Positions 1,200 to 58,180 of a stretch of 64,000 nucleotides of DNA are shown in pieces. A program made the translations under genes and the position numbers. Below the pieces are notes generated by a model. The model had not been told where the DNA came from. It saw nothing but the letters and a program-made list of their open reading frames with translations, and did no database searches. Source of the DNA: a virus. Within the stretch, counting starts at the first letter, position 1. The number at the start of each line of letters is the position of its first letter. The DNA is taken from positions 64,001 to 128,000 of the IMG/VR virus record IMGVR_UViG_3300045988_109366. One strand, written 5' to 3'.

Positions 1200-2342
1200 T
1201 TAATAAGGTGTTTCGTCATGTACTACATTGAAATCATCACTGGGCGGTATATATTGTTGCTCCAACGGGATACTGGGAGGCGGGGGCGGTAGCGTCACCA
1301 CAGTCGTGTCCGGCTTGCCGCTACCCACTGGGGCGTCCGAGCCTCCCGGTCTTTCTTGGCGCACCACCCCTCCATCAGGATAATATCGCTCATATCCTTT
1401 CATGATATCTACATGTATAGCGTCAATCTCCTCCAATGATCTTTGACGGACCTTTACGATATGATGGAACAATAACCCATCCACACGGAAGGATCGTCTT
1501 GACTCGCTCTTGAAACGTTCCAGATTAGGATACCATCCTTGCGGAAATTGCATGTATGAGGAGTACCCGTATCTTTTCGGTATATTTAACGCTACCATAG
1601 CCGTACATAACTGTCCCAATGTATCTGATTGATAAAAATCAGATTGCTTTGGCATATGATCCTTTGGATCCCGCCGTCCTTCGATATCACGATTGAGTTG
1701 GGATATTATAAGAAAGAAAATATTAGGAAAAGTTCTTTTAGCGATATTACACATGGTTATCAACGAGTCGATATTTCTTTTGGCGTCTCCTGAACCTTGT
1801 ACTAGAGCCGTATGATCTATAGACACGAATACCATTTTCTTATCCTTGTTTATTGGCATATACTCATTCCATATAAAGTTTTGAAGCTCATCTACGGTTG
1901 ATGGTTTAGGGATGTATGTTATTCTGCTAGAGTTCTCTTCCTTGAGGCATCTCTGCATTTCTTTTACCTCATCTTCTGACATCTCGTTAAGGAGTATATC
2001 TTGTATGTCTTTCCCCATTTTTTTTGATAGTGAACGTAACATCAAATCTTCTGGGTTCATCTCAAACTCACATCTTAACCATACATAATCATCTGCCTGT
2101 GGATTGATATTGACATTCATCACATTGCTCATGATTTTTTGCGCCAGATAAGATTTGCCAACTCCGGGTCTAGCGCCTATAGCCACCGCATGTTGTGGGT
2201 AGAACCCGCCCAGTAACGCCTTGTCAAGATAAGCGTATCCAGTACGAGCCGGGAGAAGCTCTCCCGACTGATACTTTCTTATCCTCTCATAGGCATCCAT
2301 GATAATCTCCTTGGATGACCTCCATATCCTATCCTCACTCAT
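1200..2342 (-). CDS. DnaB-family replicative helicase (RecA-like C-terminal domain) with Pro/Gly-rich tail
   Basis: Walker A GARPGVGKSYLA, Walker B-like VFVSIDHTALV, DnaB-type IISQLNRDIEGR. The C-terminal tail RPGGSDAPVGSGKPDTTVVTLPPPPPS is encoded by a GC-rich segment. Confidence 0.8.
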   Translation of the reverse strand: MSEDRIWRSSKEIIMDAYERIRKYQSGELLPARTGYAYLDKALLGGFYPQHAVAIGARPGVGKSYLAQKIMSNVMNVNINPQADDYVWLRCEFEMNPEDLMLRSLSKKMGKDIQDILLNEMSEDEVKEMQRCLKEENSSRITYIPKPSTVDELQNFIWNEYMPINKDKKMVFVSIDHTALVQGSGDAKRNIDSLITMCNIAKRTFPNIFFLIISQLNRDIEGRRDPKDHMPKQSDFYQSDTLGQLCTAMVALNIPKRYGYSSYMQFPQGWYPNLERFKSESRRSFRVDGLLFHHIVKVRQRSLEEIDAIHVDIMKGYERYYPDGGVVRQERPGGSDAPVGSGKPDTTVVTLPPPPPSIPLEQQYIPPSDDFNVVHDETPY

Positions 2343-9069: not shown

Positions 9070-10293
9070 ATGAGGCTAGTTGAACAACATATAATCAAGC
9101 AAAGCTCAATATATTACAATGAGATTCAAGATCTGTTGCATAAGTGCAAAAACTTATACAACAAAGGATTGTATGTTGTTAGACAACATTACTTTCAATA
9201 TAAGAATGATAATACCGTTAAGTATAAATACCTCAACTACTACCCTCTTGAAAAGAAGTTAAGAACAGAAGATGACGTTGACTATCGTGCTTTACCGTCA
9301 CCGGTAGCCCAACAGGTATTGATAATGGTCGACCAGAATTTCAAGTCCTTCTTCAATCTTCTTAATAAGAAAGGTAGAGGTGAATATTCTGAGAAAGTAA
9401 GAATACCTAAGTATCTTGATAAAGATGGGATGTTTATGGCTGTTTTCCCAACAACAGCCTTTTCTCAAAAATGGATAAAGCAAGGTATTATTAAGTTGCC
9501 AAAGCAATTCTCTTTCACCACGAGAACTAACAAGCAAAATATCCAACAACTCAGGTTCGTCCCTAAGAATGGATATATTATACTTGAAATCGTATATAAC
9601 AAGAAAGAGAAAGATCTTATATATGATAACGGTAATTACCTTGGTATTGATCTTGGACTTAACAATTTAGCATCTTGTGTATCAAATACCGGTTCCTGCT
9701 TTATCATCAACGGTAAGCCTCTAAAATCTATCAACCAGTATTATAATAAAAGATTAGCATATTTAAAATCTAAATTAAAAGACAATAAACAAGTCTCAAA
9801 GCAAATAAGGTCGTTAACCAACAAAAGGAATAACAAGATCAAGGATTATCTGCATAAAGCCAGTAGGGTATTGATTAATCATGTAGTCTCCAATGGCATT
9901 AATACGATCATAATCGGTCATAATAGATGTTGGAAACAAGAGATCAATATCGGAAAGCGGAATAATCAGAACTTTGTTTCTATTCCTTTTAATATGTTTA
10001 TCTCAATGATATCATATAAGGCTACACTTGAGGGAATCAATGTTAAGATCGTTGAGGAATCCTATACCTCAAAATGTAGTTTCTTGGATAACGAGCAGAT
10101 TCGTAAGCATGAGGAATATGTCGGAAGACGTATCAAACGAGGATTATTCAAGACATCTTCCGGCAATATTATTAACGCCGATATCAACGCTGCATTTAAC
10201 ATCATTAGAAAATCGGCAAAAGAAGCCTTCGATGTAAGTATCTTGCCAGAAGGTAGAGGGTTTTGGTGGAACCCGATACGGATTTCCGTATAG
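9070..10293 (+). CDS. tnpB: TnpB (IS200/IS605-family OrfB, RNA-guided nuclease family)
   Basis: 407 aa; RuvC-I GIDLGLNNLA; IIGHNRCWKQEINIG (RuvC-II region); EESYTSKCS ... NADINAAFNIIRK (RuvC-III). Confidence 0.85.
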   Translation: MRLVEQHIIKQSSIYYNEIQDLLHKCKNLYNKGLYVVRQHYFQYKNDNTVKYKYLNYYPLEKKLRTEDDVDYRALPSPVAQQVLIMVDQNFKSFFNLLNKKGRGEYSEKVRIPKYLDKDGMFMAVFPTTAFSQKWIKQGIIKLPKQFSFTTRTNKQNIQQLRFVPKNGYIILEIVYNKKEKDLIYDNGNYLGIDLGLNNLASCVSNTGSCFIINGKPLKSINQYYNKRLAYLKSKLKDNKQVSKQIRSLTNKRNNKIKDYLHKASRVLINHVVSNGINTIIIGHNRCWKQEINIGKRNNQNFVSIPFNMFISMISYKATLEGINVKIVEESYTSKCSFLDNEQIRKHEEYVGRRIKRGLFKTSSGNIINADINAAFNIIRKSAKEAFDVSILPEGRGFWWNPIRISV

Positions 10294-10774: not shown

Positions 10775-10960
10775 CTATTTGATATTTATAATCTTTTGAT
10801 CTCTCATCTCATTCTTATCCTTGAACATCATTATCCTATTAACAATACCTTCCGATTCCATGTACGTCGAGAATCCATGTATCCTTAGATATTGAATAGC
10901 TGATAATGATTTCTCCAATATCTCCCTATACTCCATATCTGTTTTAACTGCTTTCTCCAT
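10775..10960 (-). CDS. hypothetical protein
   Basis: ORF track. Confidence 0.4.
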   Translation of the reverse strand: MEKAVKTDMEYREILEKSLSAIQYLRIHGFSTYMESEGIVNRIMMFKDKNEMRDQKIINIK

Positions 10961-11132
10961 GATCTTTTCCCTCCATTTCTTCTAATATGATTTTAGCCAA
11001 TCCAACGGGCATGAGCGGACGTCTTGCCTTCCCCGACCGCCTACCCATATACGCCGGCTCCACCGGTAACGCCGCCCATGGCATCTTGGATGTCTCTCCC
11101 GTAAATCTGATAGTGATCGCCACAGCTCTCAA
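10944..11132 (-). CDS. doubtful ORF overlapping a GC-rich palindromic element
   Basis: It fits the gene array, but most of it is the GC-rich element 10997-11089. Confidence 0.25.
   Translation of the reverse strand: MRAVAITIRFTGETSKMPWAALPVEPAYMGRRSGKARRPLMPVGLAKIILEEMEGKDHGESS
10997..11089. repeat. GC-rich palindromic element (family member)
   Basis: CCAATCCAACGGGCATGAGCGG ... CGCCTACCC ... CCGCCCATGGCATCTTGG; 9-bp closing stem (CCGCCCATG at 11072-11080 pairs with CATGAGCGG at 11010-11018, one G.T pair) on either strand. Confidence 0.5.
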
Positions 11133-11150: not shown

Positions 11151-12236
11151 TTAATCCCATCCTAATTGTCTCGCAATACCTTCCATCTCACTATACGCGA
11201 TCCTGTGACATCCAACAACCAATATATCATTCTTATAGCTATTGGTCTTCCATTTGTGACCGGTTGTATCCAATACCATATCGTGTTGGAATTTACTGCC
11301 ATTATGGAAGAGCTTTATCAATTTCCAAAGTCTCTCAGCTTCAGCTCGTCCTATCTTGATATTCTTGCTAGTCTCAATTATGCCACTCTTAATGCGAAGC
11401 CATACGTTAGGCTGGTCATCCTCCAAATAATAATGTGGATATAATTCCAGAATCTTGCCAGACTTCCACATCTCGATCTGTTCTTCAAATTTTTTCTTGC
11501 GATCTTCTTTTTCTTTTCTTCTTTTTTCAAAAATTAAAGCCTCTTTTTTCGCCTGACTGTCTTTCCATCTCTGACATCTGGCCGCATACTCAGCCCACGT
11601 TCCTTCACCACAAATCTCATCTACTATCACATTGGTCGTTCCTAAAGTTTCTAACGCTTGATGATTTAGCAATACCTCAAACACACGCTTTAACTCATGG
11701 ACGTATTCACTTTTAATCTTATCCGATTCATAAGATAACTCATGTTTAGTTCCGATCCAGGTGTTTGCACTCTTTTTAAGAAGGCTCTTGGGAGTACCCA
11801 TATTAAAGAACTCAATATAATCCATTAGACTTCTAAATACTCCCCAAACATCCCTATAAGACAGGCTTGTTCTAACCTTCTTGTATTTCTCGATAGCCTC
11901 TTTGATAAGCTCCAATCGACTGGTGATAAAAGCCATGCTGCCATCATCAGACATATTATATCCAACAGAAAATACCTTTGAGCCAGTTGGTATTGCACTA
12001 CGAACACAATGTTGATGTTTACAGGTGGAAGAAGAATAATACTTATCGTTAAGCAAATACGCCTTTTCACCACACTTATTTCTTACGATTCTTCCAACCT
12101 CAAAATGATAGCCATAAGAATAAATACTTTCACCTTCAAAGAAGAAATTGCTACCTCTAGCTGATTCTTTCTTTTCGTTCGCCCATAAATGAGCTACCAT
12201 ATAGTTATTCATATCAATGTTTTTTTTGTTATGCAA
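11151..12236 (-). CDS. hypothetical protein
   Basis: ORF track, 361 aa; no motif I can name. Confidence 0.6.
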   Translation of the reverse strand: MHNKKNIDMNNYMVAHLWANEKKESARGSNFFFEGESIYSYGYHFEVGRIVRNKCGEKAYLLNDKYYSSSTCKHQHCVRSAIPTGSKVFSVGYNMSDDGSMAFITSRLELIKEAIEKYKKVRTSLSYRDVWGVFRSLMDYIEFFNMGTPKSLLKKSANTWIGTKHELSYESDKIKSEYVHELKRVFEVLLNHQALETLGTTNVIVDEICGEGTWAEYAARCQRWKDSQAKKEALIFEKRRKEKEDRKKKFEEQIEMWKSGKILELYPHYYLEDDQPNVWLRIKSGIIETSKNIKIGRAEAERLWKLIKLFHNGSKFQHDMVLDTTGHKWKTNSYKNDILVVGCHRIAYSEMEGIARQLGWD

Positions 12237-16386: not shown

Positions 16387-16776
16387 TTATAATATTACAT
16401 TAAACAACTCGTTTAACCTATCTATCTCACTTAGGTATTCATCTTCTTTATCAAATCTAATTTGCGTCCCTCCCTCCAATCCAAAGGGCAGGGTAAAGGA
16501 TATGACCCAGCCCGATCCGTCCACGGCCTGCTCCTTGGGAACCCAAGACATCACCGCTTTCTTGGATATCCACCATCTCCCTATCTGAACGAAATCAGGA
16601 TAGTTGTCCATTAAATACACCATCTGACTAACCATCTTATTAACATCATCAAAAGGCACTATATGATACTTGTTTCTTATCCTGACCTTCAAGAAGGGGT
16701 TATCCATATTATATGCCGCAAATGCTGATATCACGGAACTAGGATATCTAACTCCTTTTATTATCACCCATTTCAT
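16387..16776 (-). CDS. hypothetical protein
   Basis: ORF track. Confidence 0.55.
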   Translation of the reverse strand: MKWVIIKGVRYPSSVISAFAAYNMDNPFLKVRIRNKYHIVPFDDVNKMVSQMVYLMDNYPDFVQIGRWWISKKAVMSWVPKEQAVDGSGWVISFTLPFGLEGGTQIRFDKEDEYLSEIDRLNELFNVIL

Positions 16777-19610: not shown

Positions 19611-19722
19611 ATTATCTATATTTAATTAAGTTGTGTCAAGGCGCCGGGAACCGACCCCGGATCATATCCGTACACGTACGATCATGATATATCCTTCCGC
19701 CCCGCCAAGGTTTGGTTCAACA

Positions 19723-20909: not shown

Positions 20910-21140
20910 CTAATCTATCCTTTTACCATAATTAGTATATGACCCACACCATCCACGAGCCTCATTCGACACCCTAATATGATCAATGGGCTTATCCCCG
21001 ACCATTTTATTGGCGTACGATATTACATCCGACATACTTCTGAATCCGGAATCCTTAATGGATTTTATAAGCGTCCTATCATACCCGAATACCAATATCT
21101 TCACAATATCTCTTTCTTTCACAGTCCTTCTCGCCCTCAT
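20910..21140 (-). CDS. hypothetical protein (paralog of 20666..20908)
   Basis: ORF track; see paralog. Confidence 0.55.
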   Translation of the reverse strand: MRARRTVKERDIVKILVFGYDRTLIKSIKDSGFRSMSDVISYANKMVGDKPIDHIRVSNEARGWCGSYTNYGKRID

Positions 21141-21604
21141 AACATCCTAGCCATAAAATAAACAAACATAAAATCTATTCTCTCTTTGTTATCATCCATT
21201 CTATGCCCGGTAATTTCAAAAACAACCCTACGCTTTTCTACAGTCTGTATATTATCTAACTGAATAGCTATGTAAGGATATTTCATAACTTTCTCTCTAT
21301 TGATGTTATTCAAAATAGCGTTGACATCTTGCCCGCGAAAATACATATTTACCCCTATGTAGCTGGCAACCAAAAGACATTCGTCTATTATCCCATCTGT
21401 ATCGAATAACAATAACATATCATCCTTCTCGATAGTATATCCCATATCAAGAATCTTGATACGTTTGCTCCCGTCCTTCTTATTAGCTATAAGAATCTCT
21501 ATCATATCCTTATCGGTCGTAAGGATATAATACGCCTCATCCTTTGTAATATTATCACGCAGATAAAGCAGCGCTTCATCTTGTAATTTCATAATTTCGT
21601 CCAT
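21137..21604 (-). CDS. hypothetical protein
   Basis: ORF track. Confidence 0.55.
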   Translation of the reverse strand: MDEIMKLQDEALLYLRDNITKDEAYYILTTDKDMIEILIANKKDGSKRIKILDMGYTIEKDDMLLLFDTDGIIDECLLVASYIGVNMYFRGQDVNAILNNINREKVMKYPYIAIQLDNIQTVEKRRVVFEITGHRMDDNKERIDFMFVYFMARML

Positions 21605-21629
21605 ACTATTAGTATTTTATATTACCACT

Positions 21630-21697
21630 CCAAAAAAAGAACGGCGGTAGACACCCGTGGCCTACCACGCCGTGACACCGCCGCCCGTTCCCATTGG
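21630..21697 (-). terminator. GC-rich palindromic element acting as a probable intrinsic terminator
   Basis: Directly downstream of the stop at 21700. The minus strand reads GAACGGGCGGCGG..CCGCCGTTC followed by TTTTTTTGG. Confidence 0.6.
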
Positions 21698-21699
21698 TA

Positions 21700-22029
21700 T
21701 TATTCTACCACCTCTAATTTCCCGTAATAAGGATAAAAACAACCGTCTCGATAAACCGAATATCTGAGCGTTTTATCCTTTGCTTCATAGATGGAAACAC
21801 AACCGCTGTTATAAGCGTTGGATAGTTCTTTCGCTACAAATCCGCCTATTCGTTTATAGGTTTTAGGCGTATCACTCAACGGCCTGCCTACATATATTTT
21901 TACTCTCTTGCACTTCTTGTCGCCTACGTATATATCCTTTCCACTAAGCTCCGTTAAATACATGAATCTCATATCAACCGATTTTAAATCCAACATTCCT
22001 CTATCTCTATCTCCATATGATCCGACCAA
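21700..22029 (-). CDS. hypothetical protein
   Basis: ORF track. Confidence 0.55.
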   Translation of the reverse strand: MVGSYGDRDRGMLDLKSVDMRFMYLTELSGKDIYVGDKKCKRVKIYVGRPLSDTPKTYKRIGGFVAKELSNAYNSGCVSIYEAKDKTLRYSVYRDGCFYPYYGKLEVVE

Positions 22030-22226
22030 TCACATCTATCAACGTCCTCGCCATCCTCAAAGTAATAGTAGGCCCATACCTGTACGCCTCCTACCTCTAT
22101 ATATCCATCACTTTTCCATTCTATCAACCCGTCTTGCCTTACCACGTTGGTAGGCTCAGACCCTAGCGACAGCAGATTATTTACTATACTACCGCCAAAT
22201 ACGTTCCTTGATTCTTCTTTCGTCAT
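21984..22226 (-). CDS. hypothetical protein
   Basis: ORF track. Confidence 0.45.
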   Translation of the reverse strand: MTKEESRNVFGGSIVNNLLSLGSEPTNVVRQDGLIEWKSDGYIEVGGVQVWAYYYFEDGEDVDRCDWSDHMEIEIEECWI

Positions 22227-22258
22227 ATCAATATCAGATTTTTAATATTACACTAACG

Positions 22259-22329
22259 CCAAAGGGGGAACAGGGACGGACGACCAGCGGGGCCTACCCC
22301 ACGCCATCGCCGCCCCCCGTTTCCCTTGG
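22259..22329. repeat. GC-rich palindromic element (family member, homologous to 21630-21697)
   Basis: CCAAAGGGGGAACAGGGACGG ... GGCCTACC ... CCGCCCCCCGTTTCCCTTGG. Confidence 0.6.
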
Positions 22330-22464
22330 TTCCCTCCGCATCACCCCCCATACTAATAAACAATATCCACCACCAATAACACCATACCCACCATCACTCA
22401 CAACTGCCTTGCCTTGACGAGAAACTCCTACCACTTGCAAACTTTTACATCTGATCGGAAGATA

Positions 22465-22655
22465 CCCCTTGCTCGAAAGGCGTTTCCCTTGCTTGGTGTT
22501 TTTCCTCGCTTGGTGTTTTTCCCCTTGTTTGGAAAGGTTTTCCCTTGCTTGGAGGTGTTTCCCTTGTTTGGTGGTGTTTTTCTTGTTTGGTGTTTTTCCT
22601 TGCTTGGAAAGGTTTTTCTTGTTTGGAGGTGTTTTTTTCCTTGTTTGGAAATGTC
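22465..22655. repeat. about 10 tandem copies of a 16-21-bp unit CCTTG(C/T)TTGG(N0-5)GTTTTT (iteron-like)
   Basis: Read directly. The unit lengths (16,17,18,19,20,21) are not multiples of 3, and ORFs occur in several frames on both strands, so the array is non-coding. Confidence 0.8.
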
Positions 22656-22726
22656 CCATCAAGCAACCCCCACCCCCCTCGAAATCCTAAGACCTTCCGA
22701 TACTTTGTTCCACGTGGAACGCCGAT

Positions 22727-22966
22727 TCAGTCTAGGATATCGAGGTCTTTGTTCTTGATTGCCTTATACACTTGCTTTATACAATAGATTGATAATAAAG
22801 CCAATAAAATAACTATGATTAAAGGGAGGGCGTCGCCCGTAGCTATAACATACCGCCCTAACTCAAACGCCATATACCCACAAAACAAGATAAGTACGAA
22901 ATATATAAATATACCCATAAAAAATATACAATAAGTAAACACGATTTTAAAACAACACTCAAACAA
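22727..22966 (-). CDS. small hydrophobic (membrane) protein
   Basis: 79 aa with two long hydrophobic stretches (IFFMGIFIYFVLILFCGYMAF, LPLIIVILLALLSIY). Confidence 0.45.
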   Translation of the reverse strand: MFECCFKIVFTYCIFFMGIFIYFVLILFCGYMAFELGRYVIATGDALPLIIVILLALLSIYCIKQVYKAIKNKDLDILD

Positions 22967-23280
22967 TACAACAAATTGAGTATCAACAACATAATATATA
23001 TCAACCCCTAGAGCTACCTCTAAGAGAAGACAAGCCTAGATATAGATAAAAAATATACAATAAGTACCGCCTATTATATACCTTTTAGGATCGATTCAAG
23101 CGCAAATCCATACATAAGGACGCAATTCACACGTCCGTATGGATATAGATATATACAAAATGATACATAATAAAGTATTTTACTTACACATTTATAATTA
23201 AGGCTTAAAATTTACCGCCTCAACACTTTTATGTGTAAGCAAAACATATGATTATGCTGTCATTTTGTAAAATTAGACAC

Positions 23281-23323
23281 AAAAAAAGCCCTTCCGTCTT
23301 ATATCACTACAGTACAGAAGGGC
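23281..23323 (-). terminator. stem-loop plus T-run on minus strand
   Basis: GCCCTTC..GAAGGGC stem (23288-23294 / 23317-23323) followed on the minus strand by T7 (23281-23287); downstream of ORF 23356..23562. Confidence 0.45.
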
Positions 23324-23355
23324 ACAAACTTTAAAATCAAATAAAAACAAACGAT

Positions 23356-23562
23356 CTATTGTCGTAATTTGTTTGCCATATAACTAACACGTTTCCGCCT
23401 ACATTTATCAGAATCTCTACTACAATCTAATTTATTAGACTTGTATAGATCTTTGGTAAGTTCAACGTAAAATTCCATTTGAGACTTTCTTACAGCCTCT
23501 AAAGCCTTTTCTTTTTGAATGGATAATTTCTTATTCAAATTATCAAACTTTTTTTTGTACAT
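23356..23562 (-). CDS. hypothetical basic protein
   Basis: ORF track. Confidence 0.45.
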   Translation of the reverse strand: MYKKKFDNLNKKLSIQKEKALEAVRKSQMEFYVELTKDLYKSNKLDCSRDSDKCRRKRVSYMANKLRQ

Positions 23563-23584
23563 AATCTATCCTTTTTTAATGGCA

Positions 23585-23672
23585 CCAATAAGAAACGGGA
23601 GACCGGGGACGACACGGCCGGCGTTATCGATATAACCAGCCGAACGCCCGCACGCCCCCCTATTTTCTTTGG
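23585..23672. repeat. GC-rich palindromic element (family member)
   Basis: CCAATAAGAAACGGGAGACCGG ... CGCCCCCCTATTTTCTTTGG. Confidence 0.55.
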
Positions 23673-24228
23673 TTTCGTCCCCTTGCCGACAACGAAGCCA
23701 ACCAAATACGCACATACGTTGTCCGTGATACGTATCGACAAGGCGCACTTTGTACGTCAATTTAACCGCACAAAATACCCTTGTAAGGGTTGTTATTTAC
23801 TATCCGTACACATGTTAGGTATTTAAGCAACCCTAACATACGTCGTATTGATACATTAGCACGGAAATAACACCGTAATGCACTCCATGTGTGCTGCTCT
23901 CGCTACACATGGACATACGCCCTATACATGCGTATATACACCAATATACCCCATGTTTTTACATGGCCTATCCGGTTGACCGGACGTATTAACCAGTCTT
24001 GATACATAGCCAAAAATAACGGCACGCCCCTGAACTAGGAGAACGCCTGATCACACTATTAGTCGGCAACCTATTTATACGAACTCTCGATACCCTACCG
24101 ATTCGCATATCTATGTATCAATATGTTAAATATCTTATCTGTTTAGTCTAAATCAGTGGCACGGCGTGAACGTACAGATATCGCCACCATAATGCCCCTA
24201 TATATAAAGATATAAGGACATCTTAATA

Positions 24229-24765
24229 TTATCTTACATTTTTATCGTGAGTAAGATAATAGGTGATACATTTGGCTATCAATGAAAACGAAAAATTCGT
24301 TATTTTAGTAGCCATTCGAGTAGATTTATATCTTTCATTATTGTAAATAACGAAATAACCGCTTTTATCCTCAGAGTATTTAATAGGGGCACAATAGCCA
24401 AAAGCTTTATGTGTTGTGCCCAAAAGAATTTTCTGAGCTTGTTTTTCAGCTAACATTATTTTATTGTTGGCTGATTCATTTTCATCATTGTAAATCTTTT
24501 CTATTTCTATATATTGGCAAAATACGCCATCTATATTTGCAAGAATTTCTTTACAAATAGTAATAACCAATTCTTTATCTTTAGCCAAAGCGACTAAAGA
24601 CGGGATAACATCTTTTGAAACTTCAATATTGTTTTCTTTGATAATATCCATAACATCTTTTTTGCTATTAAACAATCTGCACCAAGATTTTATCGCACCC
24701 GTCAAAGTTTCAGACTCCGACTTTTTCACTGCATTTTGTACTCGATTCAAATCTTTTGCTTTCAT
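24229..24765 (-). CDS. hypothetical protein
   Basis: ORF track; AT-rich; isolated between long non-coding regions. Confidence 0.55.
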   Translation of the reverse strand: MKAKDLNRVQNAVKKSESETLTGAIKSWCRLFNSKKDVMDIIKENNIEVSKDVIPSLVALAKDKELVITICKEILANIDGVFCQYIEIEKIYNDENESANNKIMLAEKQAQKILLGTTHKAFGYCAPIKYSEDKSGYFVIYNNERYKSTRMATKITNFSFSLIAKCITYYLTHDKNVR

Positions 24766-24841
24766 ATTAAATCGCCCTTGCCCTAGGGACTTGTATAGGC
24801 ATCTAGCACGCCTCGTTTGTTAATATTGTTATCTCACATTG

Positions 24842-24849
24842 CAAATATA
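24842..24849 (-). promoter_or_regulatory. Bacteroidota-type -7 box (TATATTTG on minus strand)
   Basis: Matches TAnnTTTG. It is embedded in the 16-mer ACATTGCAAATATAAT, which is also found at 34672-34687. About 77 nt upstream of ATG 24765. Confidence 0.4.
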
Positions 24850-25318
24850 ATACATGTTTTATTTCCAAACAAATATTTTACAATAAAAATTCAACGATTA
24901 TATATAATAAAACTAATCAAATGTAAATGTATATTAAAATATTGATTTATATCATTGATAATCAACAATTTAAATCAAAAATAAGCATTCTTTTTTGGTT
25001 GGCTGGTCGTTTGCCGTTCCTTTTTCCCGCCCTTCGTGGATTGGGGGGGCGGTCCAAAAAACGGCAGACCCCACGGCCCGATTTCGGGGAGGTGGTCCGT
25101 CCCTCATATCCCGCATATCCCTCATATCCCGCAATCCCTCATACCTCTACATGTGATGCGCATCCCAACATATCCCTATCAAATCCATTCATCGTCCCCT
25201 CACGACCTTCTCATTAATTTTATTATATTTGCGATATAATAAAAACATAACATATTATGAATAAAGAAGTTGAATATATGGGGGGGGGTATTTTAACCCT
25301 CAGATAAGGGGGGGGGGT

Positions 25319-25810
25319 ATGTTTAGGCGCAGGACTTCTTCCGGTAAGATCCACTACCGTGTTAATATAAACAAGAATATGTGTCTTGGCGTTGTAGATA
25401 TATATATTGATAGGAAGCCATATCAACCTGGTTTTAACGGATCTTATCTTGATATATATCGCGATAAGAAGATAAAAACTATAAGCATAAGTGGCCAGAT
25501 ATCATATCTAAATCCGAAAAATGAGTACAATGTTATTTTGGGCATAAGTGGAGGTATTATAGAGGGAACCCTTACGTATCAATATAATTCGGGTATGCAT
25601 TGCGAGTTGGCTAATAAGGTGATATACGGGAATAGGATAACTAATTTTGTTCCTGTAACGGAGATAGAAGATCCTGGGAAGATCATTAATTTCACTTACA
25701 GATCTGAATTACAGACTCAGGTTTTAGATGAAAGTCATGTAACTTGGGATGGTGATTATATAAACGATAATTGTATAGTAACTGATCTTTGTTCGGGATG
25801 TGAATCTTAA
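25319..25810 (+). CDS. hypothetical protein (plus-strand gene inside the minus-strand arm)
   Basis: ORF track; the ATG is immediately preceded by a G10 tract. Confidence 0.5.
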   Translation: MFRRRTSSGKIHYRVNINKNMCLGVVDIYIDRKPYQPGFNGSYLDIYRDKKIKTISISGQISYLNPKNEYNVILGISGGIIEGTLTYQYNSGMHCELANKVIYGNRITNFVPVTEIEDPGKIINFTYRSELQTQVLDESHVTWDGDYINDNCIVTDLCSGCES

Positions 25811-25866
25811 GCCCATGGGAAAAGTTCTCGTGATAACTATCGAGTAACGGTAAGGATAGTGTAATT

Positions 25867-25935
25867 CCAAGGGAAGGAGGGAGACCTCGTCCTACCGGGC
25901 CTCCCCCGTCCTACCGGGCCTCCCGTTCTTTTTGG
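25867..25935 (+). terminator. GC-rich palindromic element; probable terminator of the 25319..25810 gene
   Basis: CCAAGGGAAGGAGGGAG ... internal 19-nt tandem duplication carrying CGTCCTACCGGGCCTCCC x2 ... CCTCCCGTTCTTTTTGG. Confidence 0.5.
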
Positions 25936-25999
25936 CTTCTCCCTGTCTTATCTTTGACCGGATATCAAAAATTCATATCTTTGGAACAAAACTACAATC

Positions 26000-26170
26000 A
26001 TGTTTGATGAAGATATCGAGAAGATAAATGTAAGGGATAGTACGGTTATCCGCGACAACGAGATACATAAGATGTATGACGAGATACTTAATGAGCTAGG
26101 TGATTTGGCCACTGTCGTATCTATGAACTACGTGTATGGCAGGATAAAGGACAGTACTGGATTAAAGTAG
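26000..26170 (+). CDS. small hypothetical protein (56 aa, below track cutoff)
   Basis: Manual translation MFDEDIEKINVRDSTVIRDNEIHKMYDEILNELGDLATVVSMNYVYGRIKDSTGLK*. Confidence 0.35.
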   Translation: MFDEDIEKINVRDSTVIRDNEIHKMYDEILNELGDLATVVSMNYVYGRIKDSTGLK

Positions 26171-26200
26171 GATAATAAACCATACTAAAGTCGAGGATAT

Positions 26201-28951: not shown

Positions 28952-29118
28952 CCCAAATAGTTATTATAAATAGGAGGGTCGTGCTACCCTCCTATAGATT
29001 ACACACGAAAAATAGAACTGAAAGCGATCTTAAGCACGTAAGATTTTATTGATTCCCGTAGGCTGTCTACCGGTTATCGTTAATTACCGTACGGGAATAT
29101 GTTTAAGAAAACACCATG

Positions 29119-29194
29119 TGGGGAGTGGGGGAATCGAACCCTTATCCACGCTACGATTAGGAATCGTAAATTCTATCCGTTAAATTAACTCCCC
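29119..29194 (-). tRNA. tRNA-Arg (anticodon CCT), non-canonical T-stem/variable region
   Basis: Manual cloverleaf: acceptor GGGGAGT/ACTCCCC, D-stem ATTT/GAAT, anticodon stem TACGA/TCGTA with loop TTCCTAA, T-loop TTCGATT. The T-stem has only 3 clean pairs and the variable region is 8 nt. Confidence 0.6.
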
Positions 29195-29309: not shown

Positions 29310-29390
29310 ATATGTCCCGATCCTCCCGGACAAGGACATCAAACAAAATCTAAACTCTAAATCTAATGACAAATTATATTAATCCAACTG

Positions 29391-29464
29391 TGGACCCGGC
29401 CGGGCTTGAACCGACAACCTTCTGGTTATGAGCCAATTGCTCTTACCGATTGAGCTACGGGTCC
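29391..29464 (-). tRNA. tRNA-Met (anticodon CAT; could also be an Ile-lysidine type)
   Basis: Manual cloverleaf: GGACCCG/CGGGTCC acceptor, GCTC/GAGC D-stem, loop CTCATAA, T-arm GTCGG TTCAAGC CCGGC. G1-C72 is paired, so it is not an initiator. Confidence 0.85.
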
Positions 29465-33196: not shown

Positions 33197-34297
33197 TTAA
33201 ACAATAATTGATGATGATAAGAAATACTCGTTCTTATTATCCTCCCCATAAATCTTGTTGAAATGAGATTTATGGTCATGCTCGATAACGATCCTATTCC
33301 ATGGTATGCTTTTAACTATACCAAGATACCTACCACATAGCACATCGCATATAATATCATTACCGTTATGCGATAAAGCCGTAAGCCTTTCCTTACAAGA
33401 TCTTCCAGACATAGGGTTCTCTGACATAATACCGCATCCTTTTTCAGTGAATATCAACTTACAATGATCAAACTCATTTACCTTAATATTATTTTGGAGG
33501 GCCTGGACGAGTAGATCCTTATCAAAGACATAGGTACTTGTTTTGACAAAATGCTCGTCCACGAACCTCCAATTTGGATAATTACCCTCAAAATGGGTCT
33601 CATACATATCCATATCAGGCGTAGAGAAATAAGTCTTAGTATCATCCACTTTTATAGACAACATATCCGATGACTTATTGATATGCTTATCAAGCAATAT
33701 CGCGGATTCGTTCGATACCGGGATAAACATCTTCTCTACCTTATCCTGATTAGGGACAAAATACCTGTAAATAGTATTTCTATCCGTACTTACTATATTA
33801 ATATTAATATCATCAATATCAATAACCACATTCTCGATGCATGGATAAAAGTCATCTACCTCCGTATAATCGCTGGCTTTGTTAAGAACCGAAACATAAT
33901 CGCTCATCTTAACCTTAATTCCTCCATCAAGTATCTTATGTACCTGCGGGAATGTATTGATATCAAAAGCCGGACAACTATACTCACCAGAAGCGTAGTG
34001 GATCGTGATCTGATCTTTTCTATCCGAAAGCAGTATCGTAATCTCACAATTCTTCTGTTTTTTCATGAACTTAATAAAAGAGCTTGCCTCTACCAAGAAA
34101 GAGAAGTTAGAGTCAGCCTCGACCTCCAATCGCTCTATAACACATACCTTGGCATTTACGGAAGTGATATAAGCCAGATTATTGACAACATCTATCTTAA
34201 GATCCTTATAAAGGGAGTTGGAACCGGCGTTCTTAACCACCGTCTCCAGTTTACCCAACTTCTCATTTAATGACTTCGACAAGCACTTCAATACCAT
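33197..34297 (-). CDS. DNA polymerase sliding clamp (beta-clamp-like)
   Basis: 366 aa. The N-terminal pattern (L..L..V..V......LY..L.I.V..N.L.ITS.N...... F.V.A..F..F.K ... FD...FPQ) parallels DnaN. Confidence 0.55.
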   Translation of the reverse strand: MVLKCLSKSLNEKLGKLETVVKNAGSNSLYKDLKIDVVNNLAYITSVNAKVCVIERLEVEADSNFSFLVEASSFIKFMKKQKNCEITILLSDRKDQITIHYASGEYSCPAFDINTFPQVHKILDGGIKVKMSDYVSVLNKASDYTEVDDFYPCIENVVIDIDDININIVSTDRNTIYRYFVPNQDKVEKMFIPVSNESAILLDKHINKSSDMLSIKVDDTKTYFSTPDMDMYETHFEGNYPNWRFVDEHFVKTSTYVFDKDLLVQALQNNIKVNEFDHCKLIFTEKGCGIMSENPMSGRSCKERLTALSHNGNDIICDVLCGRYLGIVKSIPWNRIVIEHDHKSHFNKIYGEDNKNEYFLSSSIIV

Positions 34298-34386: not shown

Positions 34387-34677
34387 AATCCCGATTATGG
34401 GATAAATCAGGATAAAAATCCTGTTAGTACCCATCGCCAATGTTACCAAAGGTTTCATACAAGCAGCACTGTTTTGCCGAATACGCTACTCCTGTTTAAC
34501 CACTTGCCTTAGAGCCTTGGGCTTGGATAAACACCCTAGGGTAACTATACATTCTAAGGTAACGTAGTGCTCTAAGCACTTAGGCTAATAACCTGACCGT
34601 TTCCGGTATATGTAAAATATTTTTCAACATCTTACATATTATCCGAGGTTATAATAAACAACTTTTACATGACATTG

Positions 34678-34685
34678 CAAATATA
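34678..34685 (-). promoter_or_regulatory. Bacteroidota-type -7 box (TATATTTG on minus strand)
   Basis: TAnnTTTG match inside the conserved 16-mer ACATTGCAAATATAAT. Confidence 0.4.
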
Positions 34686-34728
34686 ATCATAATTATATTA
34701 ATACAAATATAATAAATACTTAATAGTA

Positions 34729-35313
34729 TTAAAATAATTTAAACTTACGTCTAATATACTCGGCTATAAGCGTAGCGTCACACATTCCGTCTTGTATCTT
34801 AGTAGGTTGTATTCCTTTTCCTGACCATGGTTTCACGAAAGAGACCAAAGGGAAAAGGCGTATGGCGCATCGGATGGAGGTAGCTTTCGTATCTAACTTC
34901 GCCGCCGTATACACCCGATCGGCTGTCGTATGAAGCTCCTTCTGCCAGGTCTTTGGCTGTACCTCCTCGAACATGAACCTAACATCCGGGTGAGATCCGT
35001 ATCGCTCCATCATCTCCACCATCATAGCGAATAGGGCGTTCGGTTCCCGGCGTCTCCCGCCAAAGGTGAAGTTGCTGGCGGCCGAGCTGTTGTGGATGCT
35101 GTGGACGTCCTCGACGGCGATCGCCAGCGTCCCGCCTCCCTCTTCTTGGATCTTGTCAGCGGCATCTAGGAGGAAGCTTGATATAGCCCTAAGGTCTATA
35201 TCCCCCTTAGCCGATATCCTTGGAGTCATAATTACCTTAATATCCCCGTTCTCCGGGATCATGGACAATCCTCCGGTGTCTATACCCGGATCTATGCCTA
35301 TTGATATATTCAT
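34729..35313 (-). CDS. RuvC-like Holliday junction resolvase
   Basis: ISIGIDPGIDTGGLS (first catalytic Asp) and LAIAVEDVHS (Glu) in RuvC order; 194 aa. Confidence 0.6.
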   Translation of the reverse strand: MNISIGIDPGIDTGGLSMIPENGDIKVIMTPRISAKGDIDLRAISSFLLDAADKIQEEGGGTLAIAVEDVHSIHNSSAASNFTFGGRRREPNALFAMMVEMMERYGSHPDVRFMFEEVQPKTWQKELHTTADRVYTAAKLDTKATSIRCAIRLFPLVSFVKPWSGKGIQPTKIQDGMCDATLIAEYIRRKFKLF

Positions 35314-38439: not shown

Positions 38440-39582
38440 TCATCCGGCTTTACTCATCTCTGACCCTTTTACCCCTAAAAAGACGTCTTTTATAAAATCT
38501 TCGGAGATGATTATATGCATTATCTTTCCTCTGTATGATAGTCTTAGGTGTCCGATAGTTATATTTTTCCTGTCTTTGGTATTAACTATTCCGTTGTTTT
38601 TCTTTACCTCATCATATAAATCGGATATAGTCTTACAGCACATACTAAGAACTTCTTTTATCATCCGATATACCGTTCTTTGGGATATTAGCATCATACC
38701 TTCTTTTGATAACTTTATATTCAATCTATCCATAAGATATGACACATTGAATTTGACAGTTCTTTTTTTAGTTACCTTATATATCTTATTTATATTTCTG
38801 TTTCTAGCTGAGAATATTATTTTTGATAACATCTTGACTCTATTTAATTTACGACTTTTGTTAGCCATCCATCTTCTGGTATTCGAATCAAGATTTTTAT
38901 CAAGGCAGGTATATACAGATTCTCCTTTCTTTACAAACATATCCTTTATCCTTGGGGTCTTACTAGCCCTATGCTTGTATTTTATGATATCCGATAAAGC
39001 TATCATAATCTCTCCTTCAGCCCAAGCCTTTAAGCTTATAAGCTGGTAGTTCATATCCTCATGAGAATCCCTTAACACATGACGGTAGCAGAAATAAGCG
39101 CATCCATCTGATAGGATATCAATAAAATCATTGGTATTGATCTCTATCTGATCTCTATTCCCGCCATGCATCCTATTTCTTAGAAACACATGTTTGAATA
39201 CGTTTATGATAATAAGATATATCATTGCCATCTTACATTCATCACTGATCTGAATACCTGATCCATGATACTCCTCATGTTTCAATGAATATTTTATAGC
39301 TGTCACTTTTTTGCCTTCCTTATTGGTAACAGGTTTAAAATCGACTGGACATATAAGTGACCCGGCTGGAAGTTTTACGCATCCTAGCTCATCTTTTTTG
39401 GCCTGAATATTACGTGGAGTATATCTTTCGGTAATAATCTTATCGAAATTTGATTTCATCATATGTAAAATTCCTATCTTTGTTCCCATATGTTTTTTTT
39501 TTTTATTTGCTGCGAATATACAAGTTTCATCAATACGAAACAAATTATTCGGATGGATGGGTAGCCTGTGAAGGTCGCCCAT
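38440..39582 (-). CDS. hypothetical protein with possible C-terminal HTH; first gene of the minus-strand arm
   Basis: ORF track; LISQRTVYRMIKEVL resembles an HTH recognition helix. Confidence 0.55.
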   Translation of the reverse strand: MGDLHRLPIHPNNLFRIDETCIFAANKKKKHMGTKIGILHMMKSNFDKIITERYTPRNIQAKKDELGCVKLPAGSLICPVDFKPVTNKEGKKVTAIKYSLKHEEYHGSGIQISDECKMAMIYLIIINVFKHVFLRNRMHGGNRDQIEINTNDFIDILSDGCAYFCYRHVLRDSHEDMNYQLISLKAWAEGEIMIALSDIIKYKHRASKTPRIKDMFVKKGESVYTCLDKNLDSNTRRWMANKSRKLNRVKMLSKIIFSARNRNINKIYKVTKKRTVKFNVSYLMDRLNIKLSKEGMMLISQRTVYRMIKEVLSMCCKTISDLYDEVKKNNGIVNTKDRKNITIGHLRLSYRGKIMHIIISEDFIKDVFLGVKGSEMSKAG

Positions 39583-39930
39583 TTGTTGTTTATACGAAAT
39601 TATCGTAATAAATTAGAGGGGGTAAATCACTGTGTTTGTGGAAGATCATTTTTGACACGACACTTGTTACGCGCGCGTTAATAGGTATATTTATTAAATA
39701 TAATTAACTCTATAAACATATACTACTTTCTAATATCCCTATCCGTACACAGAACCTCTCCTGACGTCGAGTTCCTGTGTACTCCACTTAAAGTCTCTAT
39801 TTAATAAAACATTGCTTTTTACCGCCAAGGTATGGTGCCGTCAGGCAGGATACCGCAGGCTAAACATGGTAGAAGCCGTATCCTATACCGGAAGCCGGTA
39901 CCCCGGTAGGGGGATCGGGTGGAGCATAAG

Positions 39931-40030
39931 CCAAAGAAGAAAAAGCGAGGTCTTGTACGATCGCTCGCGCTCCGGCCGTCCGTATCTTCTACGGCAGGCT
40001 CCATGCCCCAGGGCCTCCCATTTCCCTTGG
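39931..40030. repeat. GC-rich palindromic element carrying copy 1 of a 58-nt core
   Basis: CCAAAGAAGAAAAAG ... 58-nt core 39948-40005 ... GGCCTCCCATTTCCCTTGG. Confidence 0.6.
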
Positions 40031-40061
40031 CTTTATATCCCACAGCTTAGGAGGAAGGAAT

Positions 40062-40230
40062 CCAAAGGGAAAAAGGTAAGGTCTTGTACGGTCGCTCACG
40101 CTCCGGCCGTCCGTATCTTCTACGGCAGGCTCCATGTCAATAGCGAATCTCTGGCGGCATTGTCCGGTATGACGGCGGTAGCCTTACCCTGGGTGTCCCC
40201 GAGCGTCCCCCACCAACCTTTTCCCTTTGG
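40062..40230. repeat. GC-rich palindromic element carrying copy 2 of the 58-nt core
   Basis: CCAAAGGGAAAAGG-type arm at 40062-40076 pairs over 14 bp with CCTTTTCCCTTTGG (40217-40230); core 40079-40136 differs from copy 1 at 2 positions. Confidence 0.65.
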
Positions 40231-40263
40231 ATGCCTTGGGCTATGTCATGGGACGATAAGAAG

Positions 40264-40423
40264 CCAAAAAAAGGAGTGGTCGCATCCCGTGAGGCAGGAT
40301 AAGACTGTCCCCCTCCGTCCACGTGCGTAGCGTACGTTAACTTCACTGCCCTCGCTATTGCAGACAGCCGTAGACATACATGGCTTCGTTCGTCCTACCC
40401 CCCAACTAGCTTTTATCCTTTGG
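40264..40423. repeat. GC-rich palindromic element (family member)
   Basis: CCAAAAAAAGGAGTGG ... CGTCCTACCCCCC ... CTTTTATCCTTTGG. Confidence 0.5.
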
Positions 40424-40501
40424 ATTCTCGTAAATACATGCTAGTCAGCATATATTATGTCGATTATGGCAAAATTTCTTGACAACGATATTTTTTTTAA
40501 G

Positions 40502-40509
40502 TAGTTTTG
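40502..40509 (+). promoter_or_regulatory. Bacteroidota-type -7 box TAGTTTTG
   Basis: TAnnTTTG match 18 nt upstream of the first plus-strand gene (ATG 40527). Confidence 0.4.
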
Positions 40510-40526
40510 CTGAAAACTAATTCCAT

Positions 40527-40940
40527 ATGTCTGAACAGAGGAAAGCTTTCGTATTCGCATTACCTTATGATACTAGACTGGATATGATCCAGCAGTTCTT
40601 AAGGATATACAACGGCTATCTGGATTCCAAGGGTAGGAGCTTGATTACAGAAAGAACGATAAACTTACTTTCTTTCTACATCAACTACGGATACTCTGAT
40701 GATACCAGGGCTAAGTACATGGATTGTCATGGACAGAAGGAGTCTTACATCGCTGTCCTTAACAACGAGCTTAAACGTGGTGGTTTTCTGGTGGACAAGA
40801 AGAACGGGAATTTCCGTACCCGTGAGCTGTCTATTGAGATGAGAAGCCTACGTAACTATTTTATTCTTGATGGGGAGGGTGATGATACCCGTGTAATGGG
40901 ATTCGTATTCAAGAGAAACAAATTGGATATTGATGGGTAG
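40527..40940 (+). CDS. hypothetical protein
   Basis: ORF track; first gene of the plus-strand arm. Confidence 0.55.
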   Translation: MSEQRKAFVFALPYDTRLDMIQQFLRIYNGYLDSKGRSLITERTINLLSFYINYGYSDDTRAKYMDCHGQKESYIAVLNNELKRGGFLVDKKNGNFRTRELSIEMRSLRNYFILDGEGDDTRVMGFVFKRNKLDIDG

Positions 40941-42875: not shown

Positions 42876-43164
42876 GGATGTTGATCGGGTTAATGACAAT
42901 CTTGAGGTCATATCCAAGGCCGTGGATGATGCCAAGGCTTATATTGATAAGCATCCTTGGGACAAGGAGAAGCCGGAGGATATGGCAAGGGCATTTGACT
43001 TCATATCAAAATTAATCGATAAGATAAATACATGGAATGATTCTTATATGGAGAAAAGTGGGATCATGGATGTATATAGGTCTGTAAGCAATGTCCAGAA
43101 AAAGGAACGTAAGGGTCAGGTTTCTGGTGGAATCGAGTCTGTTTTAAAGGATATTATGAAATGA
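42844..43164 (+). CDS. hypothetical protein directly upstream of terL (small-terminase position, unproven)
   Basis: ORF track; 4-nt overlap with the terL start; position only. Confidence 0.45.
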   Translation: MPQGRRKPTSKDVDRVNDNLEVISKAVDDAKAYIDKHPWDKEKPEDMARAFDFISKLIDKINTWNDSYMEKSGIMDVYRSVSNVQKKERKGQVSGGIESVLKDIMK

Positions 43165-50094: not shown

Positions 50095-50139
50095 TTACAA
50101 GTTTTGTAAATATTTTTACAAAACTTGTAATCATTTTGG
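50093..50139 (+). terminator. perfect 18-bp inverted repeat hairpin plus T-rich tail
   Basis: GATTACAAGTTTTGTAAA tatt TTTACAAAACTTGTAATC (50093-50132) then ATTTTGG; overlaps the portal stop codon. Confidence 0.6.
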
Positions 50140-53135: not shown

Positions 53136-53167
53136 AGAGGGGAGGATATTCCTCTCCTCTTTTTTTT
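53136..53167 (+). terminator. intrinsic terminator
   Basis: AGAGGGGAGG atatt CCTCTCCTCT followed by TTTTTTT. Confidence 0.75.
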
Positions 53168-53186
53168 AAAGTAACGCAAAAAGGAA

Positions 53187-58145: not shown

Positions 58146-58178
58146 AAAGGGGAGAGATTCAATTCTTTCCCCTTTTTT
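58146..58178 (+). terminator. intrinsic terminator
   Basis: AAGGGGAGAGA ttcaat TCTTTCCCCTT followed by TTTT. Confidence 0.65.
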
Positions 58179-58180
58179 AT

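Follow-up and report, generated by a model that had tools for sequence, protein, structure and literature searches.

CCAA/UUGG-ended GC-rich palindromes between early genes of a large gut phage: candidate RNA stem-loops and recombination joints

We analysed 64,000 nucleotides (nt) of a viral genome from IMG/VR, positions 64,001 to 128,000 of record IMGVR_UViG_3300045988_109366 (hereafter the window), in which eight GC-rich palindromic elements bounded by CCAA and TTGG lie between genes. The window encodes the large terminase, portal and major capsid proteins of a tailed phage, together with a UvsX-like recombinase, a Dda-like helicase, a DnaB-like helicase and a sliding-clamp-like protein (DNA polymerase processivity factor). 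Up to about 39.6 kb the genes lie on the minus strand, and beyond about 40.5 kb on the plus strand; the cumulative GC skew reaches its minimum where the gene strand switches, near 40 kb.

The capsid protein is 99.6% identical to a protein from a human faecal contig, 58% identical to its counterpart in the gut phage csAssE-Sib (151 kb) and 29% identical to that of 145-kb Cellulophaga phages; among IMG/VR contigs, more than 200 with lengths of 85-160 kb have close homologues of two window genes. For the Bacteroidota promoter form TTTG-N17-21-TAnnTTTG, the window has four matches against 1.06 expected. Because of these capsid relatives and the Bacteroidota-type promoter matches, the host is very probably a member of the Bacteroidota.

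Ends, composition and conservation of the elements

All eight elements that an earlier note on this DNA had listed were found where it placed them, each starting with exactly CCAA and ending with exactly TTGG, and all are non-coding, with lengths of 68-169 nt (Table 1). With a GC content of 0.54-0.72 they stand out from the window, which averages 0.32-0.46 per 2 kb; intergenic regions of the phage are otherwise AT-rich, and nearly every intergenic GC-rich island is an element. In all eight, CCAA and the purine run behind it pair with a pyrimidine run followed by TTGG, which supports the description of a repeat family with inverted, conserved termini and variable cores. The internal motif CCTACC, said to lie on the plus strand throughout, does so in all six of its occurrences, spread over five of the eight elements, where about 0.3 would be expected for that amount of sequence; GGUAGG is a frequent motif on the sense strand of the elements. 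The longer consensus proposed for the ends, ACGGGAGG and CCTCCCGTT, did not generalise, ACGGGAGG having two occurrences in the window, of which just one falls inside an element. What all copies have in common is limited to CCAA with its purine tract, the pyrimidine tract with TTGG, a G-rich sense strand and the hairpin architecture.

Sequence homology joins fewer members. The elements at 21630 and 22259 (types A and B) are true paralogues, as the earlier note held: a single nhmmer profile, for which relatives supplied 27 copies of types A, B and C, matches both (E = 5e-9 and 2e-8). The same profile has no match to the elements at 23585, 25867 or 10997 or to the array units X1 and X2, and it reaches the 5' end of X3 only at E = 4.3. 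BLAST inside the window finds a single pair, X2 and X3, with 96.6% identity over 58 nt. A profile from sequence alone thus did not bring all types together, and the 3' ends of a MAFFT alignment remained ragged. On this sequence evidence, demonstrable paralogy is limited to A/B/C and X2/X3. The segment at 25010-25075 was confirmed as a rearranged or partial copy.

Conservation in related genomes, which had been set as a check on the family, was observed directly, with elements standing at orthologous sites in many related phage contigs and type A having an orthologue in 40 of 47 relatives. The 3' tail of type D, CCGUUUCUUAUUGG, is unchanged in 32 of 33 orthologue variants and reads CUGUUUCUUAUUGG in the other. 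In relatives, the element at 25867 occurs with two alternative 3' halves, each pairing with one and the same 5' half, and the downstream flank of type E differs from relative to relative. Orthologues measure 65-69 nt for type A and 69-74 nt for type B; because lengths vary by 1-5 nt and not by multiples of three, a coding role for the elements was rejected. No Rfam family matches them across the whole window at gathering thresholds, and none does so meaningfully in 21500-26200 and 39500-40600 at E up to 10; literature searches found no account of these elements.

Outside the elements, CCAARRRRR is enriched in the window (58 observed against 15.8 expected), with most of the extra matches in coding sequence. 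CCWWGG was considered as a restriction-type signal and set aside, being neither enriched nor depleted (56 observed, 51.5 expected). Four CCAA...TTGG look-alikes in long open reading frames (ORFs), at 1262-1359 (minus strand), 16481-16538, 35060-35149 and 50365-50452, were judged probably to be coding sequence; the first of them has CGGGAGGC and GGGUAG yet encodes the proline-rich C-terminal tail of the DnaB-like helicase. An intergenic GC-rich hairpin region at 19625-19722 (minus strand) has no CCAA...UUGG architecture and shares ACCUUGGCGG with 39830-39860 (minus strand), just downstream of X3. About 20 nt upstream of CCAA are also common to A- and C-type paralogues (GAGGUGGUAGAAUAAUA in window 21698-21720, GAGGUGGUUAAUGAUA in contig L001 at 2256-2280) and contain stop codons in two frames, as though each repeat supplied its own stops for whatever ORF lies upstream.

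Two non-coding stretches among the small early genes, 22919-23355 (about 440 nt) and 23673-24228 (about 555 nt), contain stable local folds, for example 23877-24007 on the minus strand (-46 kcal/mol), and inverted repeats at 23166-23256; further non-coding RNAs may lie within these stretches. The early region also carries two tRNA genes (Table 1).

Table 1. Elements and other features of the window, with predicted folding energies of single elements
Feature	Positions	Strand	Length (nt)	Fold, minus/plus strand (kcal/mol; minus-strand z)	Details
Type A element	21630-21697	-	68	-33.7/-24.9 (z = -3.9)	minus strand CCAAUGGGAACGGGCGGCGG...GGUAGGCC...ACCGCCGUUCUUUUUUUGG; ends 25 nt ahead of the start of ORF 21137-21604
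Type B element	22259-22329	-	71	-42.5/-33.8 (z = -3.3)	paralogue of A; 5' half CCAAGGGRAACGGGNGGCGG..GGCGUGG common to A and B; start of ORF 21984-22226 lies 32 nt past its end
Type D element	23585-23672	-	88	-39.3/-25.8 (z = -3.1)	ends 22 nt before the start of ORF 23356-23562; G.U 27%, A.C 1.2%
Type E element	10997-11089	-	93	no better than shuffles (z = -0.07)	between ORF 11151-12236 and ORF 10775-10960; ends 36 nt before the next ATG; contains GGGUAGGCGG
Element 25867	25867-25935		69		minus strand very purine-rich; GGCCCGGUAGGACG duplicated internally
Rearranged or partial copy	25010-25080	-			hairpin ending in GCCGUUUUUUGG; inside-out pairing of U-tract and A-tract; no 5' CCAA
X3	39931-40030	-	100		last unit of tandem array; G.U 26%, A.C 1.2% (42 unique orthologues)
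X2	40062-40230	-	169		3' half duplicates X3
X1	40264-40423	-	160		first array unit; ends in CUCCUUUUUUUGG, contains GGGGGUAGGACG
Promoter-form match	24842				TTTG-N17-21-TAnnTTTG
Promoter-form match	25953-25983	+			TTTG-N17-21-TAnnTTTG
Promoter-form match	34678-34707	-			TTTG-N17-21-TAnnTTTG; ahead of HEARO/omega RNA
Promoter-form match	55792				TTTG-N17-21-TAnnTTTG
DnaB-like helicase gene	1200-2342
TnpB gene	9070-10293	+			IS605 OrfB / Cas12f-like; without TnpA
tRNA-Arg(CCU)	29118-29194	-
tRNA-Met	29390-29464	-
Sliding-clamp-like ORF	33197-34297				adjoins HEARO/omega RNA
HEARO/omega RNA	34423-34652	-			stand-alone; Rfam RF02033, 94.3 bits
Large terminase gene	43161-45950
TnpB gene	46045-47325	+			IS605 OrfB / Cas12f-like; without TnpA
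Portal gene	47332-50094
Major capsid gene	51399-53108

Folding on the sense strand

The minus strand is the sense strand of the flanking genes, and it is the strand on which the short elements fold better. Across orthologues, the mean minimum free energies of the five short types on the sense and antisense strands are -32.2/-19.0, -42.9/-30.6, -34.0/-22.2, -26.3/-20.5 and -32.6/-21.9 kcal/mol (the last pair belonging to type E). With 26-54 unique orthologues per type, this sense-strand gain amounts to 6-13 kcal/mol in the short types and only 2-6.5 kcal/mol in X1-X3. Stems of the short elements are about 25-30 bp long and rich in G.U pairs; the three array units are branched instead. A structure-based scan of relatives returned 265 matches on the sense strand against 99 on the antisense strand. 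Single window copies bear out the palindromic description in part: three of seven fold significantly better than dinucleotide shuffles (z = -3.1 to -3.9), and the elements at 10997 and 25867 and unit X3 do not (z = -0.07 to -0.67). A local-fold scan over the whole window was too noisy for use.

Substitutions among orthologues give further information on the helices. In the consensus helices (23-54 orthologues for each type), G.U accounts for 13-28% of paired cells and A.C for 0.2-2.7%; type B, with 54 unique orthologues, has 77.7% Watson-Crick, 21.6% G.U and 0.6% A.C cells. Transitions that preserve the pair (C to U opposite G, A to G opposite U) are seen at 61 of 140 stem sites, and those that disrupt it at 35 of 140 (two-proportion test, p ~0.001). 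Polymorphic pairs are 95-99% pairable, which falls to 10-75% once the 3' partner is slid by 1-3 columns. The case for structure rests on this wobble asymmetry, not on classical covariation. From these fold models we conclude that the functional form would be a minus-strand hairpin, most simply one formed in RNA.

Recombination at the elements and the question of mobility

Homology between the window and its close relative MT836733.1 breaks at elements A and B, and at the type A site this relative has a C-type element plus an extra gene. In a further contig (L205), the upstream flank of B leads into a B/A hybrid element, B-like as far as CGGGCGGCGG and A-like from there, followed by the downstream flank of A; the interval matching window 21699-22258, with two genes, is lost. 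In other contigs an A or B 5' flank leads into a C-type body, or an A 5' half is linked to another 3' half and another downstream gene. Among 398 unique instances that were tabulated, at least six upstream flanks stand next to a B body and three next to an A body, while A's own upstream flank is found with either an A or a C body. The crossovers fall at varying points in shared sequence and are therefore attributed to homologous recombination, not site-specific cutting. Recombinant forms are thus common, and they show that recombination takes place inside the elements, at joints where gene cassettes move in and out.

The tandem array varies by whole units. It occupies a 944-nt non-coding region between the divergent gene blocks and runs, in one orientation and with spacers of 31-33 nt, from X1 (40423-40264) through X2 (40230-40062) to X3 (40030-39931), each unit being closed by CCAARGG...YUUUGG with a U-rich tail at its end. 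Aligned relatives have 2, 3 or 4 units, and gain or loss always involves one element plus one spacer, with the breakpoints hidden within the conserved termini; a regular-expression count over 71 relatives gave 1-3 units, which is an undercount. X3 is present in all relatives examined and X2 in some only.

The earlier note had likened the family to miniature inverted-repeat transposable elements (MITEs) or repetitive extragenic palindromes (REPs) that double as terminators, and its suggestion of mobility did not hold up. A mobile MITE-, REP- or PATE-type element, transposing into intergenic sites and used as a terminator only secondarily, would account for terminal inverted repeats, variable cores, a family restricted to a single lineage, a varying array copy number and an orientation bias that agrees with the probable lagging-strand template; two TnpB genes and a stand-alone HEARO/omega RNA in the window also attest to IS200/IS605-type biology. 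We nevertheless consider such an origin very unlikely. Element flanks contain no target-site duplications, no direct repeats and no conserved flanking tetranucleotide, and their ends are unlike any transposase ends. Flank-to-flank junction queries for five elements against 80 relatives returned no true empty site. The window holds no near-identical dispersed copies; its copies have diverged, and only X2/X3 (over 58 nt) and A/B are related. No TnpA or RAYT (Y1 transposase) was found among the 30 longer window ORFs screened, and a link to TnpB/IS605 ends was rejected, the TnpB flanks being AT-rich and unlike the elements. Hybrid junctions at differing points within elements are, again, what homologous recombination produces.

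Copies in cellular genomes were likewise not found. A scan for CCAAGGGRAACGGGNGGCGG over one genome per species (185,579 bacterial and archaeal genomes) gave 19 matches, none of them a genuine host copy: 18 were chance matches in high-GC genomes and one lay on a phage contig in a Vibrio assembly. That 16-kb contig (L101; NZ_JBHMEP010000020.1, Vibrio olivae CECT 8064) carries a type A element with phage flanks and is almost certainly a contamination of the assembly. In IMG/VR, a degenerate 5' pattern recovered real elements in this clade only, and the more distant relative csAssE-Sib has none.

Comparison with the REP/BIME families of Enterobacteria and Pseudomonas leads in the same direction. 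Both are repeated, imperfect, GC-rich extragenic palindromes at gene 3' ends, sometimes in tandem, and the RNA-level action of REPs as 3' stabilisers or terminators matches the role proposed below. REPs, however, are 20-40 nt long, number hundreds of copies in cellular chromosomes and have a conserved GTAG read by RAYT, whereas no RAYT (among the ORFs scanned) and no cellular copy was found here. GUAG occurs in the elements only in the apical loop, and orthologues have GUCG, GUUG, GCAG or GAAG among their variants.

The IS605-related loci of the window are of interest in themselves. The second TnpB gene (46045-47325) is inserted between the terminase and portal genes, which are 41 nt apart in csAssE-Sib. 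The HEARO/omega RNA has no IscB ORF beside it, the adjoining ORF being the sliding-clamp-like one, and a block of about 365 nt that comprises this RNA is missing from MT836733.1.

Possible roles in early transcripts

On the coding strand, short elements stand between the stop codon of one small ORF and the next start codon 17-36 nt downstream (17 nt before the next ATG for the C-type element of MT836733.1). Type A begins 2 nt past the stop codon that ends ORF 21700-22029, and its coding (minus) strand carries a U-run, in agreement with the earlier description. With tails read by eye, at least five U are present in the 8 nt past the GC stem in A, D, X1, X2 and X3 and, on the plus strand, in element 25867. 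That the elements double as terminators is plausible for part of the family; a simple standard terminator scan flags only 21630 and the hairpin at 25065-25080.

Element 25867 stands after a plus-strand gene, ORF 25319-25810, and its best U-tract, GUUCUUUUUGG, is on the plus strand. Its right neighbour is either the minus-strand ORF 25948-26112, giving a convergent pair, or a plus-strand unit with ORF 26000-26170 behind the promoter match at 25953-25983; judged by its sequence, the element may act in both directions. That promoter match lies 18 nt past the end of element 25867. No match to TTTG-N17-21-TAnnTTTG falls within an element or in the gap from an element to the minus-strand start that follows it downstream, and a scan for sigma-70-type promoters gave nothing consistent either.

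Taken as a whole, the explanation that fits best, and to which we assign a slightly better than even chance, is that the elements are cis-acting RNA stem-loops of leftward early transcripts and, in addition, substrates for recombination. They would be carried on the leftward (minus-strand) early or replication transcripts of a Bacteroidota-infecting phage, with CCAA and purines pairing with pyrimidines and UUGG to close the base of each element. Such hairpins could punctuate polycistronic RNA as leaky intrinsic terminators or attenuators, as 3'-end protecting or processing hairpins, or as both; a terminator or attenuator role is proposed because most elements are U-rich on the 3' side. As a second role, they would serve homologous recombination, by which ORFan cassettes may be added, deleted or swapped and array copy number altered, since paralogous copies share termini and 5' halves.

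Several observations weigh against this explanation. As to structure, compensatory double changes are scarce (1-2 per short type), column shuffles keep pairing because the changes are one-sided wobbles, which makes a shuffle test for covariation uninformative, and the helices predicted by alifold come from the same alignments that were used for the pair counts. As to termination, U-tracts are poor in types B and E (3-4 U of 8 in B, C and E), and GC(U)7RU, the bubble-edge motif of strong terminators (Battaglia et al. 2026), was not evident by eye, the tails being a U-run plus GG and not U7-RU. Efficient termination would silence genes that start 17-36 nt downstream with no recognisable promoter between; if the elements are terminators, they would for this reason have to be weak, leaky or regulated. 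Late genes of the phage end in ordinary short terminators, such as an 8-10-bp stem with U8 after the capsid gene (about 53138-53170) and a similar one at about 58147-58180 (stem with U6-8), so that the GC-rich elements form a class of their own; behind the portal gene lies an AT-rich 22-nt perfect palindrome (50089-50136). The invariance of CCAA and UUGG themselves, in elements whose interiors are otherwise unrelated, is not accounted for, nor are three branched 100-170-nt units upstream of the leftward operon. Finally, the sense strand is probably also the lagging-strand template if replication starts near 40 kb, at the GC-skew minimum, and the strand asymmetry is for that reason compatible with single-stranded DNA hairpins too.

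Set beside intrinsic (Rho-independent), partly bidirectional terminators, the elements have in common with them a GC-rich hairpin whose 5' side is rich in A and whose 3' side is rich in U, a place downstream of stop codons and, for type A, detection by the standard scan. They differ in stems two to three times longer than those of the phage's own late-gene terminators, in the lack of a U-tract in several members, in the promoterless gap of 17-36 nt to the next gene, and in the invariant terminal CCAA/UUGG.

The promoterless gap is a better fit to processing than to termination. In such a reading, which we regard as unlikely, the elements are RNase III-type sites: a double-strand-specific host endonuclease would cut intercistronic hairpins, leaving protective 3' hairpins and freeing the next start codon. 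Stems of at least two helical turns with bulges would suit this enzyme, as would the absence of good U-tracts in types B and E and the difference in kind from the ordinary terminators of the phage. A family of similar intercistronic RNase III hairpins is found in the early region of phage T7, and the elements resemble it in being irregular, long hairpins between early cistrons of a lytic phage; T7 sites, however, have no CCAA/UUGG clamp. RNase III has no known requirement for invariant CCAA/UUGG ends, most members have U-rich tails, and the array X1-X3 lies outside any cistron. The processing reading overlaps the explanation by cis-acting stem-loops and differs from it only in the enzyme that acts on the hairpin.

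A structure in single-stranded DNA, either an attC-like recombination site or a replication-linked hairpin with X1-X3 at the origin, appears highly improbable. Elements do stand at cassette boundaries, where the unit of gain and loss is a gene plus an element, and they have a single orientation, conserved inverted termini, variable centres (68-169 nt) and AAC...GTT beside the stem; the functional strand is the probable lagging-strand template and the array lies at the switch of GC skew and gene strand. Integron attC sites (57-141 bp) are likewise imperfect palindromes at cassette 3' ends, with inverted conserved ends, variable centres, one orientation and a fold specific to one strand. Their consensus ends, however, differ from those of the elements, which read RRRRAAC/GTTYYYY as against RYYYAAC/GTTRRRY in attC; no integron integrase, tyrosine recombinase or other site-specific recombinase was seen among the window ORFs scanned, and crossovers are spread along the shared sequence instead of falling at one site. 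The 13-28% of pairs that would be G.T in DNA would also weaken DNA hairpins far more than RNA. Membership among MITEs, REP/BIMEs and attC sites thus fails in each case on defining features that were tested.

The array invites a different view, in which the elements, X1-X3 above all, are stable small non-coding RNAs (decoys, sponges or ligands of a phage RNA-binding or processing protein) whose mature form is defined by the CCAA/UUGG terminal stem. Stable RNAs typically have terminal stems in which the two ends pair, the invariance of the termini points to sequence-specific recognition, and X1-X3 are branched, 100-170 nt long, outside ORFs, conserved and variable in copy number; the relative csAssE-Sib encodes Ro60-like, PNK and CCA-adding enzymes. 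This view is quite unlikely in our judgement, given the lack of any Rfam match even at E up to 10, the lack of a promoter match ahead of the units and the branched interior folds of X1-X3, which covariation supports poorly, and csAssE-Sib, for all its RNA enzymes, has no elements. As to its function, the array could be an insulator of read-through between the two gene blocks, a small-RNA set or an origin-linked structure.

A bolder proposal, which we consider doubtful, is that the CCAA/UUGG-clamped hairpins are not generic terminators and instead form recognition modules of a phage-specific RNA machinery, either as signals at which a phage RNA polymerase terminates or pauses or as substrates of a phage-encoded endoribonuclease or RNA-binding protein, and that the release of X1-X3 yields a new class of stable structured small RNAs.

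Among known systems, the promoter-early stem-loop (PeSL) cassette found in T4-type phages is the nearest to these elements. PeSLs recur in intergenic positions among ORFans and include a terminator-like stem-loop with G-T pairs; genes are shuffled when copies recombine (Arbiol et al. 2010, PMC2839356; Comeau et al. 2014, PMC4122927). Both families are intergenic, placed from stop to start and concentrated among small ORFans of variable early regions; both have a GC-rich stem-loop with G-T or G.U pairs and an actual or supposed terminator or attenuator function, and in both recombination between copies yields gene insertions, deletions and replacements. Unlike PeSLs, however, the elements described here have no promoter part that we could find, and too little room for one before the next ATG; their stems are 25-30 bp long, as opposed to the short polyG/polyC stems of PeSLs; they have invariant CCAA/UUGG ends and a tandem array of long branched units; and the phage lineage is unrelated and the host phylum different.

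These results bear on how early transcripts are organised and how ORFans are shuffled in large Bacteroidota phages, in a clade (genomes of about 150 kb) that is abundant in human-gut viromes. The elements provide a sequence-defined marker of what may be transcript punctuation in these phages, and recombination inside shared hairpins offers a concrete mechanism for the gain and loss of cassettes, which would carry the PeSL idea beyond T4-type coliphages into an unrelated lineage of gut phages. They are also compact, strongly structured candidate terminators or insulators for Bacteroides.

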